Source of the DNA: a virus
Length of the DNA: 64,000 nucleotides
IMG/VR virus record: IMGVR_UViG_3300009314_000003
Coordinates: 1-64,000 of that record
Strand: one strand, 5' to 3'
Positions 51,169 through 62,258 of the stretch are shown here, piece by piece (the first letter of the stretch is position 1; every line of letters begins with the position of its first letter). The position numbers and the translations under genes were made by a program. The notes beneath the pieces are model-generated. The model worked only from the letters and a program-made list of their open reading frames with translations. It made no database searches and had not been told where the DNA came from.

Positions 51169-53826
51169 ATGGCACTTCCTAAAATCACAAGTGTTTTGAC
51201 AGATGGAAATCTGGAACGGGCCGAGGGTAGTGGTAATCGTAGTAAACATATTACCATTATAGGTACAGCTGTAGATGGGCCAATGTATACATCGGTGACG
51301 ATCCGAGATCTGGATCACGCTGAGAGCATTTTTGGTACCTTCAATAGAGGAACTCTTCTCCGCGCCATGAATGAGGCATGGCAAGCCCAGATGGATAGCG
51401 GTAGAACTCCGTACATCTCTGGTGTGCGTGTAGGTGGTCTGGTTGCTTCGAGGGCTGATCTTGAGATTGAGAATAATAACTCAGAAGTAGCTCTAAAGCT
51501 TGAGGCTCTTTACCACGGTAGTCGATATAATGACATCGTTATCACCGAGGATAGTTCTAATGATGCTATCAAGATATACAACCCCGTATCTGGTATTTGG
51601 TCAACCTTCAAATATAACTGGACAAATTCCAACGCGGGAGGCGTAGATGCGCATAACGTCGTTGAACTGGCAAATGCCATCAATGCTGATAGTAATCTGA
51701 ATGGTATTTTGGTTGCATCGGTTCCTGAGATGATTGCTACGTTTGAGGTATTTGCTAAAAGCGGCGACGCTTTTGTGTCTTCCTCAAATAGTAAAACCAC
51801 TATCACCCTTAATGGGGCCGGTAGTGGCGATCTAAATGCAGACACTCTTTACCTGGACGGGTCATCGAGTACCACTACCATAGACGAAGTTCATAGACCA
51901 ATTGTAAGAGTGTCAAAGGTGTATGCTATTACTGATGGTGGTATCGAGGTTCTTGAGGGCGGAAGTTCTCAGGCTACGACAGTACATCTACCTCTGGCGG
52001 GCCGGAGTGATACTCGTTTTGATACCCTTCTCAATGTTATTGATGAGAACGGGACATTAGGCGAGCTAGCTCAAACCCCGGATGATTTGGCCATAACTTC
52101 AGAAGGGTATTTCAAAGTCCGGAATCAGGGCATTGGTATACTTGATCTTGATGTTGGTAGTATTACCTTCGATGCTCCCCTTGCTATTGCCGATGCCGAT
52201 ACTTCAAGTAATTTAAGTGGTACAGCATCAGCCTATACTACGGCTAAAAATTATGGTGCTGGTTACACTGCAAGCAATCTTGGAGCAGAATTCCAAGGCT
52301 TAACTAGATGGACAGTAGCAGGGGAAGAAAGTTCCTCTGGTACTTATCCTATCAAAGTTGAGTGGAAGGATCCCTCTGCAGGACCTAATGCGTGGCAGGC
52401 CGCCAATCTAGGCGACACAGCCTGGGCCCTTAGTTGGGCAAACGATCAAGCGACACTTACGTTCCCAAGCAGTACACCGGACAGGTATGACGGAATGGAG
52501 ATTAGAATCTCTTTCGATTCATGTATTGGAGTGTTCAATGAGAAGTCAACCCTGGCCGGGGTTGAGGAGTCTTCATCTTCCTTCCTGGATTACTTTGTGC
52601 GAGGTCAGGAAATCATCTTTGGTAAAGCCCTACCACATAACTTGGCAGTTCGTTACGCCAGGGTACAATACTATGAGCTCGGCTCCACAATATCTCTAGA
52701 AGATGCTGAGGCCGGCAAATTTAGTATTACTGGTGTAGGTATACAACCAGGTCCTGGGGGCGGTGCTCTTGGAACTAGCGATAGTACTATCGGCTTTGAT
52801 GTTATATACGCTCAGGATGAATTCAGTTTAAGTAGCTCTCAATCTCTTCTAGGTGGTACCTCCGGTACTGGTTTATCGGATAGTACTCTCTACAGTGAGC
52901 TAAAGGAGGCCTATGATAATCTGGATGCATTTGATTTTGACCTCTTAATCACACCTGGTGCATATATTGACTCCACAAAAGGTGGTTACAATGTACTAAC
53001 AGGCGCTCCAGAAGAGGTGAACGCAGGATTCCATGAGCTTATGGATGAGTTTCTCTCCGGTTATAATGGAGATGCCCGTGGTATTATGGGTTTCAAACCC
53101 ATAGTAGGTACTGGTATCAATAATACCATCAGCAGGAAAGATGTTGCCAGTCGTGTGTCCAAACTAACTGTAGTTGATTACAGTGATAATCTTCGTGCGG
53201 CTAACTTTCTGGCTAACTTCGACTCCAAATATATGATGGCTATTGATCTAGAACCTATCGTTATAGCTAAAGGCTCCCGTTATACAACTACGGGCGAAGC
53301 AATAGTTGCTGGTCACCTGGCAATTCTAGAGCCAGAAGAAGCCCCTTATCTTAGCTCCTTAACAGGTACACAGGGTCTTCGTTATCGTTACTCTAGTAAA
53401 GTAGCTGATGGCCGTAGTCAACTTGATGCACTAAGCGACATGAGAATAATAGGGGCCAGGATCGATGGTTACAGGGCGCGGCTCGTTGATGGACCGTCCC
53501 TTGCTGAACCTGGATCTGATTACGAACGCTGGACAACCTCCAGCATCGTGGCTGCTGTTATGAAAGATGTTCGCGCTGTTGCCGAACCATTCCTCGGACA
53601 TGTCTCTAATTTGCCTACACTACAGGCACTGGAGACTACTCTCCGAAGTAGACTTAATCAGCGAGTACCAAAGTCACTTTCCGCGTATTCCTTTAAGATC
53701 AAGTCTTCTCCGGCACAGAAGGTTGTTGGCATCATCGAAATCCCACTGACATTGGTACCTGTGTTTGAAATCCGTCAGATAAAGGTTACAGTTGTACTTA
53801 AGGCTGACGCCTCGACTCTGGCGTAA
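51169..53826 (+). CDS. tail sheath protein
   Basis: IIGTAVDGP...AESIFG at the N-terminus; C-terminal F.G...LVPVFEIRQIKVTV. Confidence 0.9.
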   Translation: MALPKITSVLTDGNLERAEGSGNRSKHITIIGTAVDGPMYTSVTIRDLDHAESIFGTFNRGTLLRAMNEAWQAQMDSGRTPYISGVRVGGLVASRADLEIENNNSEVALKLEALYHGSRYNDIVITEDSSNDAIKIYNPVSGIWSTFKYNWTNSNAGGVDAHNVVELANAINADSNLNGILVASVPEMIATFEVFAKSGDAFVSSSNSKTTITLNGAGSGDLNADTLYLDGSSSTTTIDEVHRPIVRVSKVYAITDGGIEVLEGGSSQATTVHLPLAGRSDTRFDTLLNVIDENGTLGELAQTPDDLAITSEGYFKVRNQGIGILDLDVGSITFDAPLAIADADTSSNLSGTASAYTTAKNYGAGYTASNLGAEFQGLTRWTVAGEESSSGTYPIKVEWKDPSAGPNAWQAANLGDTAWALSWANDQATLTFPSSTPDRYDGMEIRISFDSCIGVFNEKSTLAGVEESSSSFLDYFVRGQEIIFGKALPHNLAVRYARVQYYELGSTISLEDAEAGKFSITGVGIQPGPGGGALGTSDSTIGFDVIYAQDEFSLSSSQSLLGGTSGTGLSDSTLYSELKEAYDNLDAFDFDLLITPGAYIDSTKGGYNVLTGAPEEVNAGFHELMDEFLSGYNGDARGIMGFKPIVGTGINNTISRKDVASRVSKLTVVDYSDNLRAANFLANFDSKYMMAIDLEPIVIAKGSRYTTTGEAIVAGHLAILEPEEAPYLSSLTGTQGLRYRYSSKVADGRSQLDALSDMRIIGARIDGYRARLVDGPSLAEPGSDYERWTTSSIVAAVMKDVRAVAEPFLGHVSNLPTLQALETTLRSRLNQRVPKSLSAYSFKIKSSPAQKVVGIIEIPLTLVPVFEIRQIKVTVVLKADASTLA

Positions 53827-54030: not shown

Positions 54031-57000
54031 ATGAGTAATGTGTTTGATGTAAGTACAAACGATGTTGCTAAGACATTTACGACCTTCTCTGGTTCGGACA
54101 TCAAAGCGGTATTCGGAAATGTGGAGATAGGCAATCTGCAAGGCCTTTCACTCTCGGTAAACCGTGAGGTGAGGCCGGTGTTTGTGATGGGTAAATAGAT
54201 GATTTGCCCTTTCCTGCTAATATCGGGGAAATCTAAGGGCCAGTGGGCCTATGGCAATCCCGAGGCAAGCCCATTATGTGGCAGCCGTAGAGACTTGATC
54301 AGCAATGATCAGGCTCCGTTGAGAAAGACCCTAATACAGGGTAACGGAAGCAATACGCAGGAGCTGTCTAAATGAACGATCAAACACATCAGCTATTGAA
54401 TGGTAGTCTGTTGGGTGACGGTTACTTGAGCAAGTGCCAATATCATACCGCCAGTGATGGATACACACGCTGGCATAATAGTCGTTATGAGGAAGATCAC
54501 AAAGAAGATGACAAGTCCTACCTTGAGTGGAAGGCAACAATCATGAGTCAGGACTTTGATGTGAAGTGGGTATATAAAGAGGCACGCACGTTGGGCATTA
54601 AAGGACATGAGGCGGACTGTGGTCCTGTTTATCGAATTTACACCAATACGTCTACTGAACTGTCCGATCTACGGCAGATATGGTACCCAGATGGCCAGAA
54701 GATAATACCGGACTATCTGGATGACTTTGACTCCTCGACACTGACTTCCTGGTACTATGATGATGGCACCTATCATGTTCACCGTCAGATAATAGAGATC
54801 AGCACCGATAGTTTCACCCTTGAGGACGTCAAACGCCTCCAGGGATGGCTTAGAGACCGGTGGAACATTGAGGCTGCCATCAAGCGCAAACCAGGACACG
54901 CTATTAGGCGGTACTACCTTCATCTTAACAGGGAAGCCTCCAAGAGGCTCCTCAGTCTAGTCGAGGATGTACCAAGTATGGAACGCAAGAAGCCTATGGG
55001 CTGGGATGGAGTCTTTGATCGTAGTGAGACACCATCCAACTTTCATAGGCGGCTGAACGCTAGGCTGTCCTCAGGTGAGAAGCGGAAGCTAATAGTCCTC
55101 GACCTACAAGAGTTCTATGAACAGACTGGGCCGTGGGATGGTTTCCCAGCCGTAAAGTATCACTACACTGAGGATTGCATAAGTCCAACCCTGGCCATAC
55201 GCCACTTCGGATCATTCAAGGTGGCTCTCGAGTCGGCCAGACTGCCAACTAACTATATTTAGACAGCAAGAGATAGTCCATACCTACCGAAAGGTTAGGA
55301 TGAATTGAAATCAGATGCCGTGAGTTACTCGAAGGGTAAATAGATGTTTGCCCTTGTAAAAGCTAGCTCGTTCGAGGAAACCTACAGGGCCGTGAGGCGC
55401 CAAGGCAATCTCGATGCAAAGACGGTCCCGGGGACTTGGTTACCGGGATGCAGAGGCGGTAGAGACTGCACGCTAGCCAGCTGGGCCTCCAAGGGTCAAA
55501 CAGCTGAAGGAACAGTCCAGGCCCATGGGAAACCATGGAGAATTACTGAAACGCGGAATCGCAGGGTTGAGATGAATTGGCTCTGCTTAAATCCGGCTTA
55601 TATCGGTGAACGCCGAGAGGCTAATACCGAGGGGTATCCGTACCTGTGATGCAAACAATAGGAACTAACATAAATGTCTAGTGGAAAGTGGAAGAAGTAC
55701 AGATCCTGTCCTATTACTAGAGACGGGGTCAGAGTACTGTATGGGACTTTGCTAGGAGACGGATCCTTATTTAAGGATCCAGAGTGTGTGAATTATAGAT
55801 TTTCAGTAACACACTCTAATCGTCACTCAGATTATATACAGTGGAAACAGTCTATACTTGGACTTCCATCGAGTATTTGGAATGATGAGAAAAGAAACCT
55901 AGTAAAACTTCAGTCACTAGCCTGTACCGAGCTTACTTCTATACATACCAGCTTCTACAATGGAGCTGTTAAACGAATTCCACGTGACATTGACTTAACT
56001 GAACTGCTGTCACCTTTATCGATAGCTACCTGGTTCATGGATGATGGTAGCTACGATGTTGAGGAGGCAGTAGTTATATCCGCGTATGCTTTCTGCGAAG
56101 AAGATATGCTTCGTGTAGCAAAATACATGGATCACGTTTATGGGATTAAGATCAATGTCTGGAGTGATAATCGTGTTTACATACGCAAGGAATCACATGA
56201 CAGGTTCTTTAGTATTATCACTCACTACGTAAGTGAGGTTCCTTCTATGCATTATAAGGTACGCACTTGGATAAAACCAGGTGTCTCCCAGGTGAAACTC
56301 CTGGGGTATGACGAGCCCTGTAGAGACTATCCCACAGCCGTGGGATCATGGGATGGATTTATCCGCCCATGAAACGCCGGACTTGAACTAATAGAATATG
56401 AACTGGACACAAGAAGAAACTGAGATCCTGAGAGATAATTACTCCTGGAATCCAAGGACAGCTATGTTACTTCCTAACAGGTCTGCACATCAGGTAATAA
56501 AGAAGGCTAATAATATAGGCCTGAAGAGAGATGGGCGAGGTAGGATAGATACTCTAAGGGCTGACTATTTTGATCATTGGACCCCTAACATGACATACAT
56601 CCTAGGATTCTTCACAGCGGATGGAAACATATATGCACCACCAACCCGGGTTGATGGGGTTAGTGTTTATAAGATCACATTTGCCCAAAGTGACCCATAC
56701 ATACTAGAACTAGTATGTGATGAGTTGGGTATCTCAAGAGGGTATATTTATGGACAGCAAGGGCTTAATGCCTTACCTCAGGGCGGGTACCTGAATATGA
56801 TACATCCGATGTATAGGGTAATGTTTACCAGTAAGTATATGGTAGAGAGATTGAAGGAGCTTGGCTTGTCTGAGCGTAAATCAACACAACTCAAGAAAGT
56901 ATCCGTACCTAAGAAGTTCTTCGCTCACTTCTTGAGGGGCTACTTTGATGGAGATGGTTGTCTTCAGATATCCAATAACACCACACCAAGTATCACATTT

Positions 57001-60000
57001 ACTGGTGGATCGAGGCAGTTTCTTAAATCAATCGAGGCCCGAATCAGTCGTTATTGGGATCTCCCAGGTGGCAGACTAAGGCCCAGGAAAAGAAACAAGG
57101 TCTGGGATCTGCGGTATCGTAAGGCTACTTCTCTCGAGATCTTGAAGAGAATGTATGAGGGCCATCCAGATATTCTATGCTTACTGACTAAGTACAACAA
57201 ATATGCGGGTGTTATAGGTGATGATGTAATTGATATACCAGAAGTATCATACAATTACCGAGTCTATGACACTGGCACACAAGTTCAAGAAGATATAGTC
57301 CAGGAATAGAAGATAACGTAAGTTATTGATAATTCAGCACTTATATTGACCATGTTTGACCGCCAAGCCCTACACGACATCATGCGGAGTGCTCGCTATG
57401 TAGCCAAACCAGATGATTGGGCAGGGTCGGCGGGTGTTTCTCGTGCTTTAGGCGATGCCTCAGATGTAGGTAGTGACTACACCCTGGAGTCTCCATCATA
57501 TAGTGACCAGATTCCACCGTTCGATATTACACTCGTCGGTAAACCTAAATAAGAGATGAGTAATCTTAAATACGATAAAGAACAGTTAGTATCTGAATCT
57601 CTTATTGAACAGCCGCTCTCAGAAGCGATTCTGAGTGAAACACCGGGTGAATTCAGTGGATCCCTAAGTACCAGTCAAATCTGGGATATGGCAACACTGA
57701 GCCAAGCCACGCTGGGCTTTGATAGCGTGGAAGGTGCAACGACTACATCTCTGAGTCCCAACAATAACGAGATGCACGAGCTCCCGGCACCCCTTCGGGG
57801 TGATGATATAGTCTGTGCTTCAGGGAAACCTGAAGAAGTAGCGGATAAAGAGCCGCTATGGTAACAATACAGGTTAACGAGTTTGGGTCAGCGACAACAA
57901 TGCGAATACATGGAGTTCACCTCATTTCAGAGGGAACTGGTGTGTCGGTTGACAATCAGCCGCTTTCCCAAGAGATTGGGATTGACAAACTGGGTGAATT
58001 CGGAGGAAGCCTAAGTGCTATTGCATAAGGTAACTCCGAGCCAAGCCGTACTGGGCTTAGATAGTACGGAAGGTGTAGAGACTAGCTTGAATCATATAAT
58101 AATAGTTCACCAAAGTGTGTAACGAAAATGAATAAAGACAAACGTAGCATACTCTTAGGTATGTGTATAGGAGATGGTTACATAGGTGTCAGTACAGACA
58201 AACGGTGGAATACCAAATCCTACGTACTTAGGCTATGTCACTCAGTGAAGCAGAAAGCATATCTAGAGCATAAAACCGAGCTCCTCCATTCTGCTTTAGG
58301 TGGCAAGAAACCTAGAATCGTTGAGTATAACAATAATGGATACCCAGGTGTGAAGTGTAGCAAGACAAATAAGTACTTTAAGGTGCTTAGAGATTGGTTG
58401 TACAAGGATGGGGAAAAGGTTGTTACCCGTAGAATCCTTGATATGCTTACTCCACAAGGTATCGCAATATGGCATATGGATGATGGTAGTTTGTATACTA
58501 AACGCCGCAACGGAAAGGTTCACGCTTGGGAGTTATGTACCAGCACATATGTAAGCTGGGATGAAAACCAAGTAATAGTGGACTATTTTCGTGATGTCCA
58601 TGGAATACGCTTTACAATAGTCAAGGGAAAAGGAAAGTACAGGATTCGCTGTGGTACAAAAGAGGCAAAGAAGTTTATTGAGATCGTCAAGCCATTTATA
58701 ATACCATCAATGTTGTACAAAGTCCGAATGATCTCTGACAATAATGATTCAAGCCAAGAGCGCCCAGCACCCCACGTGGGTGATGATATAGTCCGGACTC
58801 CAATGAAAGTTGGAGAGATAAGGTTTAAACGGCCTTATGATAACAAGTCGTGATGACAATGTCCAAGAGGCGACACAACTGCCTCTCTTCTCGAGTAATT
58901 GAGATGCCTAAACCAGGCTTATATCAGGGGAGGCTAAGTCCTACGGGATATGCTAATCCTGAGGGGTTCACGCCCTGCAGAGACTCATCCACTATGGATG
59001 GATCCGGAGTGCTTTGTCAGCCGGATAATACGCCTGGCTCCCACTTTATGTGGGATGATGAGATAGTCCATACCTACCGAAAGAGTAGGAGTAAATGCAC
59101 AAATGACGTTTGTGGCTTTACCCAAGACGGGCTGGGTCACATTAAACCGTGCTTAATCGGGGAACCCTTACTGGGGAATCCCGAGGGGTGTTTCGTCCCG
59201 GTTACTGCCGGGAGTCTGACAAGCCCTGTAGAGACTGAATAGTATGAAACTATGGACTAACAAAGAAGTTGAGATCCTTCACGAGAACTATAGCTGGAAT
59301 CCGCGTATTGATGAACTATTACCGGATCGTCCCAGACGTCAGATTGTGAGTAAGGCAAACCGAGAGGGCCTGAAAGTAATGGGACGCGGACGTGCATGGG
59401 GCTTAAAGGTAGACTTCTTTGACCATTGGAGTGAGGAGATGGCTTATGTTTATGGCCTGATCGTTGCTGATGGGTGTATAATGAAGCGTAAGGATAGTGG
59501 TATAATGGTTATTGATATAACGCTAAATGATGAAGACCACATTAGGCGATTAGCCAATTTGTTGGGCGTACCAGAGCGTGTTTATAGTAACAGTGATGGT
59601 ACATATCATCTGAGGTTTGTTAGCAACTACATAGCCAAAAGACTGATGAAGCTTAAGGTTCCGTTTCGTAAGTCTCTTGTCCTTGGTAAGCTTCCTGTCC
59701 CTAAGAAGTTCTTCTCTCACTTCCTACGTGGTTACTTTGATGGAGATGGATCCTTCAGTATTAATGCTAAGGGCCGAGCTCCTATGCTTAGTTTCACATC
59801 AGGTTCATACAATTTCCTTCGATGGATTCAAGCAAAGTTAAAGAGGTATTATGGCTTTCCAATGGGTCGTCTTCGTAATAAGAAAGGCACCAATACATGG
59901 AATGTCTGGTATAGGAAATCTGCATCTATATTCCTAATGGCAATAATGTATAGGGATAAGGGTGACCTCTTTCTTCGCAGGAAGTATAACAGATACATTA

Positions 60001-60206
60001 GTTATCTATCCGATCAAGGACATACTATTCGAGAAAAGGAATTCATTTCCCTTCTAAACGCACGGCTACCTCAGAAAGAGGTAGAAGAGATAGTCCATTC
60101 TCTTGAACAAGAGAAGCAGCAAGTAACATGGTGGAAACCAGTTGAATCCGACGCGGACAAACTAGATATCGATGATATTTCAGGTACGATAGTTGGATTA
60201 CAATAG
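54031..60206 (+). CDS. tail tube-type structural protein, 206 aa, split into 8 exons by 7 group I introns
   Basis: join(54031-54192,55308-55337,55549-55567,57338-57540,57873-57949,58851-58870,59098-59117,60117-60206) gives a 621-nt open frame. It aligns motif by motif with the paralogue at 60247 (TFSG.DI, RE..PV, RGIAGS/RTIAGS, DQ.PPF, VNE.G, EG, FVA/YVA). It follows the sheath gene and has an AAGGAG RBS. Confidence 0.88.
54193..55307 (+). mobile_element. group I intron 1 (HEG in P8)
   Basis: P1 GGGU|AAAU...AUUUGCCC with U-G; P3 UCCUGC/GCAGGA; P7 GACU/AGUC; terminal G; P10 UGAUUU/AAAUCA. Confidence 0.9.
54372..55262 (+). CDS. LAGLIDADG homing endonuclease (intron 1)
   Basis: LLNGSLLGDG and WYYDDG; C-terminal RHFGSFKVALE repeat. 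Confidence 0.88.
   Translation: MNDQTHQLLNGSLLGDGYLSKCQYHTASDGYTRWHNSRYEEDHKEDDKSYLEWKATIMSQDFDVKWVYKEARTLGIKGHEADCGPVYRIYTNTSTELSDLRQIWYPDGQKIIPDYLDDFDSSTLTSWYYDDGTYHVHRQIIEISTDSFTLEDVKRLQGWLRDRWNIEAAIKRKPGHAIRRYYLHLNREASKRLLSLVEDVPSMERKKPMGWDGVFDRSETPSNFHRRLNARLSSGEKRKLIVLDLQEFYEQTGPWDGFPAVKYHYTEDCISPTLAIRHFGSFKVALESARLPTNYI
55338..55548 (+). mobile_element. group I intron 2 (ORF-less, 211 nt)
   Basis: P1 AAGGGU|AAA...UUUGCCCUU; P3 GCUAGC pair; GAGACUG/CAGUCC; terminal G. Confidence 0.88.
55674..56372 (+). CDS. LAGLIDADG homing endonuclease (intron 3, P6)
   Basis: LYGTLLGDG and WFMDDG. Confidence 0.88.
   Translation: MSSGKWKKYRSCPITRDGVRVLYGTLLGDGSLFKDPECVNYRFSVTHSNRHSDYIQWKQSILGLPSSIWNDEKRNLVKLQSLACTELTSIHTSFYNGAVKRIPRDIDLTELLSPLSIATWFMDDGSYDVEEAVVISAYAFCEEDMLRVAKYMDHVYGIKINVWSDNRVYIRKESHDRFFSIITHYVSEVPSMHYKVRTWIKPGVSQVKLLGYDEPCRDYPTAVGSWDGFIRP
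56398..57309 (+). CDS. LAGLIDADG homing endonuclease with N-terminal Myb-like helix domain (intron 3, P8)
   Basis: WTQEETEIL, YILGFFTADG, HFLRGYFDGDG. Confidence 0.88.
   Translation: MNWTQEETEILRDNYSWNPRTAMLLPNRSAHQVIKKANNIGLKRDGRGRIDTLRADYFDHWTPNMTYILGFFTADGNIYAPPTRVDGVSVYKITFAQSDPYILELVCDELGISRGYIYGQQGLNALPQGGYLNMIHPMYRVMFTSKYMVERLKELGLSERKSTQLKKVSVPKKFFAHFLRGYFDGDGCLQISNNTTPSITFTGGSRQFLKSIEARISRYWDLPGGRLRPRKRNKVWDLRYRKATSLEILKRMYEGHPDILCLLTKYNKYAGVIGDDVIDIPEVSYNYRVYDTGTQVQEDIVQE
57541..57872 (+). mobile_element. group I intron 4 (ORF-less, 332 nt, extended P1)
   Basis: CGGU/GCCG with an AAUAAGAGAU/AUCUCUUAUU extension; GAAUUCAGUGGA, CACUGAGCCAAG, CGACUA/AUAGUC; terminal G. Confidence 0.88.
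57950..58850 (+). mobile_element. group I intron 5 (HEG in P7.1)
   Basis: P1 CGGU|UGA...UCAGCCG; P3 CUGGGUG/CGCCCAG; GAGACUA/AUAGUC; P10 AUCA/UGAU; terminal G. Confidence 0.9.
58128..58853 (+). CDS. LAGLIDADG homing endonuclease (intron 5)
   Basis: LLGMCIGDG and WHMDDG; its stop codon lies in exon 6. Confidence 0.88.
   Translation: MNKDKRSILLGMCIGDGYIGVSTDKRWNTKSYVLRLCHSVKQKAYLEHKTELLHSALGGKKPRIVEYNNNGYPGVKCSKTNKYFKVLRDWLYKDGEKVVTRRILDMLTPQGIAIWHMDDGSLYTKRRNGKVHAWELCTSTYVSWDENQVIVDYFRDVHGIRFTIVKGKGKYRIRCGTKEAKKFIEIVKPFIIPSMLYKVRMISDNNDSSQERPAPHVGDDIVRTPMKVGEIRFKRPYDNKS
58871..59097 (+). mobile_element. group I intron 6 (ORF-less, 227 nt, atypical 5' junction)
   Basis: P1 AGAGGC/GCCUCU; P3 CCAGGC/GCCUGG; GAGACU/AUAGUC; P9 like intron 1. 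The junction is ambiguous by about 1 nt. Confidence 0.8.
59118..60116 (+). mobile_element. group I intron 7 (HEG between P7 and P3')
   Basis: P1 UGUGGCU/GGUCACA; P3 CCGUGC/GCACGG; P8 CUACCUC/GAGGUAG; P10 GCUG/CAGC; terminal G. Confidence 0.9.
59244..60206 (+). CDS. LAGLIDADG homing endonuclease (intron 7), in frame with the last tube exon
   Basis: WTNKEVEIL, YVYGLIVADG, HFLRGYFDGDG; the last 29 aa are exon 8. Confidence 0.88.
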   Translation: MKLWTNKEVEILHENYSWNPRIDELLPDRPRRQIVSKANREGLKVMGRGRAWGLKVDFFDHWSEEMAYVYGLIVADGCIMKRKDSGIMVIDITLNDEDHIRRLANLLGVPERVYSNSDGTYHLRFVSNYIAKRLMKLKVPFRKSLVLGKLPVPKKFFSHFLRGYFDGDGSFSINAKGRAPMLSFTSGSYNFLRWIQAKLKRYYGFPMGRLRNKKGTNTWNVWYRKSASIFLMAIMYRDKGDLFLRRKYNRYISYLSDQGHTIREKEFISLLNARLPQKEVEEIVHSLEQEKQQVTWWKPVESDADKLDIDDISGTIVGLQ

Positions 60207-60246: not shown

Positions 60247-61155
60247 ATGCCTTACGGACCATTTCAGTTTGGTAGTTTAGAATCGGGGCAAACCTTCTCC
60301 GGGGTAGATATTATTGCTACCCTACGGGGACCAGATATACCCGGAGCTATTGCTATGACAAACCTAAACACCGTAAGTTACTCTATACACAGGGAGAAGG
60401 CACCCGTCCGTCGACTCGGGCGGGTGTACTCCCAAGGCTACACCAGAGGCCCCCGCACAATCGCCGGCAGTATGGTGTGGATAAACTTTAATAAGGCAGC
60501 TCTCTGGGAACTAATTAGAACGGCCCCTGGCGAGGAATCGCCTGTTCACTCCATCATGACAGATCAGCTCCCCCCTTTCCATATGGGCTTTACCTTTGTC
60601 AATGAGAATGGGCTGTCAGCCTTTATGAATCTCTTTGGCATTGAGATTGTGGACGAGGGAATGGTGCTGGGTACGGATGAGGCTTACCTAGAAACGACCA
60701 TGCAATATGTAGCAGAGGATATTGACCTTATGTACCCAGGAGATGATATTAACGAGAAGTGGGATGAGCTTATGCGGCAAGGTATAGACAAACAACACCA
60801 TGAAATCTTTAATAGTAAAGAGGAAGCCAACCAGTTTGCTGCTGAGTTAAGGGGTAAAGGAATAAGAATAAATGTTGGGAAAATAATGAGTGGAGAAGAT
60901 AAGGATAAGTGGAAGGTGTACTTTTCCTTAACAACAGGTGAAGAGATGTTCAACGTCTTAGGTCCATCAAATAAAGACTTTGTTCGTATGATGAAGGCAG
61001 CAGGTCTACTTGATTTTGATCCTTGGGGAGAGAGTCTTGATAAGAAGGATCTTGTATACTATGACGCCCATGGAAATCCACACTACGATACAACCCATAC
61101 ATATCAACACTATACACCACCACCACCTGAACCTGAAAATGGAGATGATGGTTAA
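60247..61155 (+). CDS. tail tube-like virion protein (paralogue 2)
   Basis: TFSGVDI, REKAPV, RTIAGS, DQLPPF, VNENG; intron-free homologue of the split gene. Confidence 0.8.
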   Translation: MPYGPFQFGSLESGQTFSGVDIIATLRGPDIPGAIAMTNLNTVSYSIHREKAPVRRLGRVYSQGYTRGPRTIAGSMVWINFNKAALWELIRTAPGEESPVHSIMTDQLPPFHMGFTFVNENGLSAFMNLFGIEIVDEGMVLGTDEAYLETTMQYVAEDIDLMYPGDDINEKWDELMRQGIDKQHHEIFNSKEEANQFAAELRGKGIRINVGKIMSGEDKDKWKVYFSLTTGEEMFNVLGPSNKDFVRMMKAAGLLDFDPWGESLDKKDLVYYDAHGNPHYDTTHTYQHYTPPPPEPENGDDG

Positions 61156-62258
61156 TGTACTATAGCGGAACACAAGCTACAGCTTGGGTGGCCAGTAAAA
61201 AAGGTAGCCGGCGGCTTACATTATTTGAATTAGATGTAGCCTCCTTCCAATTCAATGCCTCTGTAGTTAAGATGCCACTCTATGGCTACCGCTCCAAGAC
61301 TTTTGATGCCGTAGCTGTTGGTGAAAAGCTGATTCAAGGCCAGATGATGATTAACTTTAAGGAAGCAGATCAACTGGAGCTTCTTGAGGAGGAGATAACG
61401 TTTGAACTTACCCTCGAATATCAGCGTGGGCTGGGCTCGGACTTCACCCAATATATCTTTGAGGATGTACACTTCTCCACCCTCTCCCATGGGGCCACAC
61501 CAACCGGGAATCCAATTATAGAGGCCGTTGACTTCATAGCTAAAGACTTCCGGGCCAAGACTACTGCGCGTCCACCTATTGCTATTCCTGAGGATGAAAC
61601 GAGCGTGGGAGAAGATTCTTTAGGTGGTGTTCCACCCCCGGAAGATATACCTTTAGATGTATTTGTAGATAAAATTAAAGCAGAAGCCTACCAACTTATT
61701 GTAGGTTCTATATCAACCCACGATCGGTTTTACATACCCTATAGTAGTATAACACGCAACTCACCTTTACTTACTAGTTATATAACTGACTATACAGTGA
61801 AGGCTGGAGATTTGGTATGTTGTCGGCCTTCATGTGGGGTTGAGACAAGAGGAGGCGATTTCCGGATAACGGTGGGCTCTAGGGTGAAGCCCCGCTGGGC
61901 TTTTCAAATTAAACAGGCTGTAGAGGCATCCATTTCGCCGGAGGGGACTTCCTCCTACATTGGCCCATTTAGTAGTAAAGAGGCCGCCGAAAGTTTCTAT
62001 GAATTCTATCCTATCTTTGGAAATGGTATGTGGATATGGGGTACTCGGGATGGTCCGATGGTGATCATAAAGGGAAATACTAGATTCCCTGATTTTGTTG
62101 TGTTTAAAGATTCGCAGGAGGAATCATTGGGGGTCATAAGTAATCAGCTGGGGGAGATTATGTATATAAACTCCGATGATATAGACGACTTACTCCATAA
62201 TAGGACGACTAAAGTAGAAATACTTAATCACTTATTTGCCCACCTTGTCCAATCATAG
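61155..62258 (+). CDS. tail tube-like virion protein (paralogue 3)
   Basis: YYSG, PLYGY.S..FDAVA.G...IQG...INF, FIAKD. Confidence 0.7.
   Translation: MYYSGTQATAWVASKKGSRRLTLFELDVASFQFNASVVKMPLYGYRSKTFDAVAVGEKLIQGQMMINFKEADQLELLEEEITFELTLEYQRGLGSDFTQYIFEDVHFSTLSHGATPTGNPIIEAVDFIAKDFRAKTTARPPIAIPEDETSVGEDSLGGVPPPEDIPLDVFVDKIKAEAYQLIVGSISTHDRFYIPYSSITRNSPLLTSYITDYTVKAGDLVCCRPSCGVETRGGDFRITVGSRVKPRWAFQIKQAVEASISPEGTSSYIGPFSSKEAAESFYEFYPIFGNGMWIWGTRDGPMVIIKGNTRFPDFVVFKDSQEESLGVISNQLGEIMYINSDDIDDLLHNRTTKVEILNHLFAHLVQS

Follow-up and report, generated by a model that had tools for sequence, protein, structure and literature searches.

Seven group I introns, with and without endonuclease genes, spliced in nature from the tail tube gene of a marine virus

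Introduction

Group I introns with and without homing endonuclease genes (HEGs) are known to occur together in one gene, and trans homing of the latter is also known. In phage T4, the mobE endonuclease and the nrdB intron with its defunct I-TevIII form such a system, with co-conversion of up to about 2 kb (Wilson & Edgell 2009, PMC2790892), and its authors anticipated frequent trans homing in genes that hold introns of both kinds (PMC2790892). In collaborative homing, F-CphI, a free-standing endonuclease, acts with the psbA intron of cyanophage S-PM2, which lacks an open reading frame (ORF) (PMC3984707). Here, we analyzed a stretch of 64,000 nucleotides (the window; positions 1 to 64,000 of the IMG/VR virus record IMGVR_UViG_3300009314_000003), in which a contractile-tail tube protein gene at 54031-60206 on the plus strand carries seven group I introns (I1 to I7) that are removed from RNA in nature.

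Tail tube genes with introns have been described in Staphylococcus myoviruses, and, besides trans and collaborative homing, these genes of Twort-like phages come nearest to the present case. The orf142 tail-tube gene of Twort is cited as holding three introns (Landthaler & Shub 1999, cited in PMC11878797), and kayvirus 812 keeps or loses two non-coding tail-tube introns jointly with an adjacent nuclease gene, the joint loss occurring in mutants (PMC6445280). The present locus resembles them in being a contractile tail tube gene with multiple group I introns, and 812 also resembles it in the linkage of ORF-less introns to a neighboring nuclease. However, these phages have two or three introns and a nuclease outside them, whereas the gene described here has seven introns accounting for 90% of its length, five internal HEGs, and micro-exons of 19-30 nt. 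Outside phages, intron-rich fungal mitochondrial genes such as cox1 and cob (PMC8393795; PMC6279837) likewise are conserved genes with many group I introns, both HEG-bearing and ORF-less, and with siblings at several sites. In contrast to these organelle genes, which have much larger exons and no splicing deadline in a lytic cycle, the present gene belongs to a virus.

The comparison extends to the mode of inheritance. As in T4, an intron without a working endonuclease would be inherited here through the cut of a nearby enzyme and co-conversion. Whereas the T4 case involves one free-standing nicking HNH enzyme and one intron, the present gene interleaves five LAGLIDADG genes, all located inside introns, with three introns that are ORF-less, the site of each ORF-less intron being 19-77 nt from that of a HEG-bearing neighbor. 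The enzyme of collaborative homing cuts exactly at the site of the ORF-less intron, which is unlikely here for recognition sites of 18-22 bp centered 19-30 bp away. Finally, the intron endonuclease gp210 of phage PhiPA3 can harm a co-infecting phage, one of whose essential genes it can cut in the intron-less form (PMC11620839). That case is experimental and concerns an HNH enzyme and an RNA polymerase gene, whereas the cutting of competitors by the present array is a possibility only.

Results

Precise excision and exon ligation were seen for all seven introns across the transcript contigs assembled from two marine metatranscriptome runs (X5 and X6) and a JGI contig (L166), which was obtained through a protein search (P0001), is independent of X5 and X6, and is 100% identical to the window. 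The X5 and X6 contigs join positions 54192 to 55308, 57540 to 57873, 57949 to 58851, 58870/71 to 59098/99, and 59117 to 60117. In addition, one X5 contig joins exons 2, 3, and 4 (E2-E3-E4), with the letters between its two joints corresponding to E3, and the loose ends of the X6 contigs agree. L166 starts inside I3, of which it keeps the 3' part, and then runs contiguously through E4-E5-E6-E7-E8 into the next gene.

The resulting map, entirely on the plus strand, starts with E1 (54031-54192, 162 nt), which is supported by homology to gp140 of phage 0305phi8-36 and the KLEB27-3 tube protein and by the first RNA joint. It is followed by I1 (54193-55307, 1115 nt), a group I intron with one HEG that was spliced out in both X5 and X6, and by E2 (55308-55337), a 30-nt micro-exon supported by the RNA contigs and by a gap-free alignment to homologues. 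The ORF-less I2 (55338-55548, 211 nt) and the 19-nt micro-exon E3 (55549-55567) are defined by the X5 contig that joins E2-E3-E4, and I3 (55568-57337, 1770 nt), which contains two HEGs, ends at the RNA joint to 57338. E4 (57338-57540, 203 nt) is supported by homology, RNA, and L166. The joints of the ORF-less I4 (57541-57872, 332 nt), the HEG-bearing I5 (57950-58850, 901 nt), and the HEG-bearing I7 (59118-60116, 999 nt) were each found in X5, X6, and L166, whereas the junction of the ORF-less I6 (58871-59097, 227 nt) was found in an X5 loose end and L166. The remaining exons, namely, E5 (57873-57949, 77 nt), the 20-nt micro-exons E6 (58851-58870) and E7 (59098-59117), and E8 (60117-60206, 90 nt), are supported by RNA and L166. 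The introns thus occupy 5555 of the 6176 bases of the gene, and the spliced coding sequence (CDS) of 621 nt encodes a product of 206 aa. A sequence-only reading of the window had proposed seven introns between 54193 and 60116, alternately HEG-bearing and ORF-less, with insertion sites 19-30 nt apart within the groups I1/I2/I3 and I5/I6/I7. The RNA contigs, L166, and Pfam bear out this layout: the two limits are the start of I1 and the end of I7, and the spacings are 30 and 19 nt (E2 and E3) and 20 and 20 nt (E6 and E7).

The spliced protein aligned with intact homologues without gaps at the I1-I4 junctions, and the RNA-based map of I5 and I6 gave the same gap-free fit in the spliced product P0001 and closer homologues. 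A map drawn from homology only, with an E6 of 21 nt and an E7 of 12 nt, was overturned by the RNA contigs and L166; its I5/I6 borders were wrong because near-duplicate strings flank I5. Unspliced contigs were also present in X5 and X6, and mixed retention was found at 100% identity, with I5 kept and I6 removed in X5 and with I3 kept and I4-I7 removed in L166. These molecules look like splicing intermediates rather than DNA alleles. Spliced joints were absent from the DNA runs X7 and X8, where cover is thin; with a depth of 0-4 at the locus and short contigs, these runs have no bearing on intron-minus alleles. No joint indicating exon skipping between siblings with a common guide was found in the RNA contigs, although contigs drop rare forms. 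One X7 contig (depth 9) appeared to link 54270 to 58069, but it was rejected, as foreign letters lie between these positions and it matches just two short intron-core stretches (54250-54270 and 58069-58086). This contig presumably comes from a different organism in that water that has a related group I intron.

Next, the group I features of the introns were examined. P1 hairpins could be folded for all seven introns, and the 5' exon ends in U, forming a U.G pair, at six of the seven sites. The exception, at 58863-58892 and 59090-59100, is I6, which is spliced after a G (58870) that is paired with C in P1. The I6 junction, which joins 58870 to 59098 in the X5 RNA contig and L166, has a one-base ambiguity with a C on both sides, and it was settled because a terminal G is required. 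In the RNA-defined map, all seven introns have this terminal G at the 3' end. Rfam matched group I cores at 57593-57835 (77 bits), 58827-59090, 57940-58815, and 59903-60115. Against the RF00028 gathering cut-off of 50 bits, I4 scored above (77.3 bits), whereas I5 (37 bits, E 3e-7), I6 (40 bits, E 3e-8), and I7 (29.5 bits on the 3' core) scored below, all three with E<=6e-5. Rfam gave no match for I1, I2, and I3, nor for I2 searched alone at E<=10. Core-like P4-P6 and P7 strings were recognized by eye only.

Pfam LAGLIDADG domains placed 1, 0, 2, 0, 1, 0, and 1 HEGs in I1 to I7, all on the plus strand. HEG1 in I1 (54372-55262, 296 aa; PF03161, E 1.4e-23), HEG2 in I3 (55674-56372, 232 aa; E 7.6e-29), and HEG4 in I5 (58128-58853, 241 aa; E 2e-30) belong to LAGLIDADG_2, whereas HEG3 in I3 (56398-57309, 303 aa) and HEG5 in I7 (59244-60206, 320 aa) belong to LAGLIDADG_3/1 (PF14528/PF00961). 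In the alignments, all five keep both LAGLIDADG motifs with their acidic residues (G-D-G and D-D-G / D-G-D-G), and the ORFs look intact. The closest solved protein to HEG4 is I-SceI (E 1.3e-10); judged from these matches, HEG4 is I-SceI-like, as are HEG1 and HEG2 by family. Chance ORFs overlapping I2, I4, and I6 had no Pfam match at E<=1, and none was HEG-like. The stop codon of HEG4 (TGA) consists of the first three bases of E6 (58851-58853), with none inside I5, and the HEG5 frame crosses the 3' splice site into E8, where it shares its stop codon with the tube gene. Thus, the full-length forms of HEG4 and HEG5 can be made from unspliced RNA only. HEG3 and HEG5 are 43% identical, and I3 looks like an I7-type intron, with a 5' core and HEG3 like I7 and HEG5, that acquired the unrelated I-SceI-like ORF HEG2. 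As a separate observation, the I7 segment 59187-59202 matches both sides of the HEG2 block in I3.

To compare the introns with each other, the alignment scores of their ribozyme parts were expressed as z-scores against shuffled controls, and BLAST segments agreed with the results. Similarity was highest for I4-I5 (z of 22), followed by I1-I2 (10.4), I1-I6 (7.5), I5-I6 and I4-I6 (about 6), and I3-I7 (5.1). The closest relative of the ORF-less I2 is the adjacent I1, and that of the ORF-less I4 is the adjacent I5. I1 and I2 have the same P1, guide sequence, and exon motif GGGT/AAA (the slash marks the insertion site), and I4 and I5 have common guide bases (from P1 and, for I5, the Rfam alignment) and the exon motif GTCGGT/. 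The spliced CDS contains exactly two copies of each motif, GGGT/AAA at sites 1 and 2 and GTCGGT at sites 4 and 5, with every copy occupied; about 0.09 and 0.07 occurrences, respectively, are expected per 621 nt. The array therefore reads as [I1 I2] [I3] [I4 I5] [I6] [I7]. By the same sequence comparisons, I3 and I7 can also be regarded as siblings, and I6 as a chimera, with a 3' end that matches I1 (87% over 38 nt) and makes up most of the I1-I6 score.

The exon residues at site 1 (55308-55310; Lys after Met-Gly) and site 4 (57535-57540; Val-Gly) depart from the family consensus, whereas those at sites 2 and 5 are ancestral. The divergent residues give rise to the motifs that sites 1 and 4 have in common with sites 2 and 5. 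The contrast is weak evidence that sites 1 and 4 are derived, and the divergent residues may have been left by copying or by adaptation to the guide.

Of the 35 possible orders of four HEG-bearing and three ORF-less introns, one is strictly alternating, and at least four of six gaps of <=30 nt arose in 4% of trials with seven uniformly placed sites. Both values were calculated after the pattern had been seen, and neither is more than moderately unusual. Read in this way, the array alternates as a result of mixed sibling pairs plus single introns. The sequence-only reading missed this stronger pattern of adjacent siblings with a common guide and exon motif, which points to local proliferation as the origin of the alternation.

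Exons 1 and 4 identify the host gene through their similarity to tube proteins from two Bacillus phages, 0305phi8-36 (gp140) and KLEB27-3. The gene lies 3' of an 885-aa tail sheath gene (51169-53826) and is followed by two tube paralogues (60247-61155 and 61155-62258). The source record has 147,988 bp, an estimated completeness of 77%, and is contained in marine and seawater runs. A megablast search of the locus against phage records gave no match. With two exceptions, described below, the tube gene is uninterrupted in approximately 240 loci, which came from IMG/VR and JGI metagenomes through searches with exon 4 or the protein of L153 (a more distant relative) and which are at most 46% identical on exon 4. 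A protein search with E4 at similar lengths gave no split forms, and locus searches in IMG/VR with HEG4, HEG5, and a HEG3/HEG5 alignment either came up empty or hit two loci that lack tube exons.

Closer relatives, 67-87% identical on exon 1, surfaced only with exon 1 as the query. Eleven of these 12 homologues are full length, on contigs of up to 195 kb, and are thus intron-less; one example, P0002, is syntenic, and its identity to the spliced protein is 68%. Around each of the seven sites, 15-18 of 22 bases match the nearest intron-less allele, and the 22-bp site windows match distant relatives at 18 positions or fewer. The twelfth closer homologue, P0004 (L247, 6001-8276, and L248), is interrupted by two group I introns, whose scores of 72.9 and 65.6 bits exceed the Rfam cut-off. 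The shorter one (342 nt) is ORF-less, and the longer one (1298 nt) holds a 361-aa ORF containing HNH_repeat domains (homing-endonuclease-associated repeats). They are separated by a 43-nt micro-exon, the two cores show 83% identity over 293 nt, and they are inserted 20 nt upstream and 23 nt downstream of site 4 of the window. Judged from this comparison, the pairing of an ORF-less intron with an endonuclease-bearing sibling on the far side of a micro-exon recurs independently in this second phage.

In L153 (1-363), a micro-exon of 18-19 nt encodes the same KRGIAG motif. This contig starts inside an intron whose 3' end lies at site 2 of the window. On the other side of the micro-exon, one base from site 3, lies a group I intron (Rfam, 52 bits) that is complete and ORF-less, and no introns follow further 3'. 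In L183 (2873-4150), a tube paralogue carries an in-frame intein, with Cys...His-Asn/Ser borders, in the conserved Gly-rich motif that holds I1-I3 in the window. Overall, occupancy is patchy, and no relative has more than two of the seven sites. Because L153 has introns at sites 2/3 only and L247 has introns flanking site 4 only, the 5' and 3' clusters are separable.

Discussion

On balance, and with modest confidence, we think that a few founder introns were copied into nearby sites compatible with their guides, that the ORF-less copies ride with their armed neighbors, and that the alternation is a by-product. Founder introns would have spread locally, into exon sites matching their guide within the best-conserved stretches of the gene. 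Such spread would give the adjacent sibling pairs I1/I2 and I4/I5, with one LAGLIDADG gene kept per pair, because an endonuclease copied to a new site could not cut that site and would be dispensable there. Alternatively to such a loss, the endonuclease gene may have invaded only one of two ORF-less copies. The copying itself could have occurred by reverse splicing or by a DNA-level event followed by selection for splicing. The evidence for reverse splicing of group I introns is circumstantial only, as stressed in a review (PMC3984707).

The ORF-less copies are probably maintained by co-conversion. A cut in an intron-free allele by any of the five endonucleases would be repaired from the intron-rich donor, and co-conversion during the repair would carry the neighboring introns along, as in trans homing. 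With all seven insertion sites inside a span of 369 exon bases, movement of the entire array would tend to occur in blocks. The sequence-only reading had also suggested that ORF-less introns could hitchhike, and this part of its functional reading stands as likely: hitchhiking would be expected from published trans homing, given a reach of up to 2 kb in T4 and 369 exon bases here. Since introns in any order would hitchhike over this distance, the alternation is not required. Other parts of that reading, namely, overlapping recognition sites and immunity conferred by ORF-less introns, were not upheld, and neither was an alternation maintained by selection. The recognition site of I-SceI is 18 bp long and spans the insertion site. 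I-SceI-like enzymes would therefore reach approximately 9-11 bp from the junction, compared with 19-30 bp to the neighboring insertion point, and with recognition sites that end short of the neighbor, immunity is unlikely.

These distances bear on the proposal that the array is a co-adapted composite mobile unit, in which recognition sites span the neighboring insertion points, ORF-less introns need the enzyme of a neighbor or protect the allele, and alternation is selected. The spacings of 19-30 nt are real, five HEGs serve seven introns, the second, unrelated HEG in I3 could act at a neighboring site, alternation has a chance of 1/35, and collaborative homing is an established pathway (PMC3984707). 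However, HEG1, HEG2, and HEG4 are I-SceI-like, with a site that would fall well within the spacing; alternation gives no clear gain, since any order within 369 exon bases is equal; and the sibling pairs already explain the pattern. Moreover, the intron next to site 3 in L153 is ORF-less, and the 3' cluster is absent there. We therefore regard a co-adapted unit as quite improbable. An account without any functional link between the introns is somewhat less so, although still unlikely. It holds that the introns arrived or decayed independently in a homing cycle that runs from gain through fixation and HEG decay to loss, with ORF-less introns at later stages and the alternation coincidental. It agrees with the post hoc nature of the pattern (p ~0.03), with the compactness of the ORF-less introns, which are without HEG remnants, and with the insertion of introns and an intein into the same conserved motifs in the unrelated L153 and L183, which fits independent targeting of conserved sites (PMC2814812). 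This account leaves unexplained that I2 and I4 are nearest to their HEG-bearing neighbors, with a shared guide and exon motif, and that the same mixed sibling pair occurs in L247, and the five intact HEGs argue against an old, decaying array.

The LAGLIDADG proteins might instead act as maturases that help to fold both their own intron and its ORF-less sibling, so that one per pair suffices and is kept for production of the tube protein. Yeast mitochondrial LAGLIDADG maturases act on a related second intron (the bI4 maturase and aI4alpha), the array has one ORF per adjacent sibling pair, and I1-I3 score poorly against the Rfam model. Nevertheless, the phage group I introns that have been studied self-splice (PMC3984707; PMC11878797), and I4 is a strong canonical ribozyme (77 bits), which makes shared maturases the least credible of these explanations, with very little probability.

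Several points weigh against local copying with hitchhiking. Endonuclease activity, cutting by each enzyme at its own junction, co-conversion, and how and in which direction the introns were copied are inferred. The closest relative of I6 is I1, at the 3' end only, rather than a neighbor, so that the pair model cleanly explains two of the three ORF-less introns. The siblings in L247 share neither the first 50 nt nor the exon motif; thus, guide-directed copying is not universal. In addition, the shared exon motifs could partly result from later co-adaptation of exon and guide, and sibling identities of approximately 70% indicate that the copying was not recent. No phage reverse transcriptase is known for the reverse-splicing route.

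A more specific form of local copying is offered tentatively, as a possibility that we consider doubtful: the array would represent guide-directed proliferation of group I introns within one phage mRNA or gene, in which every site matching the sibling guides is occupied, the endonuclease survives in one copy, and the other copy hitchhikes. If this is true, the locus would provide unusually clean natural evidence for ectopic intron transposition in a virus, by reverse splicing or a DNA-level equivalent. It would also supply a general rule yielding mixed neighbors with and without HEGs, and so dense arrays that home en bloc.

The new aspects of the locus are its density, with seven introns in a gene of 6.2 kb that are all spliced in the sea, and the adjacent sibling pairs with a common guide and exon motif and one endonuclease each, a layout of armed and ORF-less siblings repeated in a second phage. 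In the literature searched, where three introns per gene is the highest number reported, this is the densest intron array in a phage gene, and it is an extreme form of a known principle. The locus offers a natural system for studying how introns colonize nearby sites, how ORF-less introns persist, and whether the array is transferred as a single unit to intron-free alleles, the prevailing kind among relatives.

Probable further homing elements were seen in the same genome outside the window. At 67300-73000 on the plus strand and 140800-142800 on the minus strand, several LAGLIDADG_3 domains lie within very long open frames (4405 aa and 1397 aa). These are probably multiple inteins in large genes, which would make the phage rich in homing elements of two kinds.

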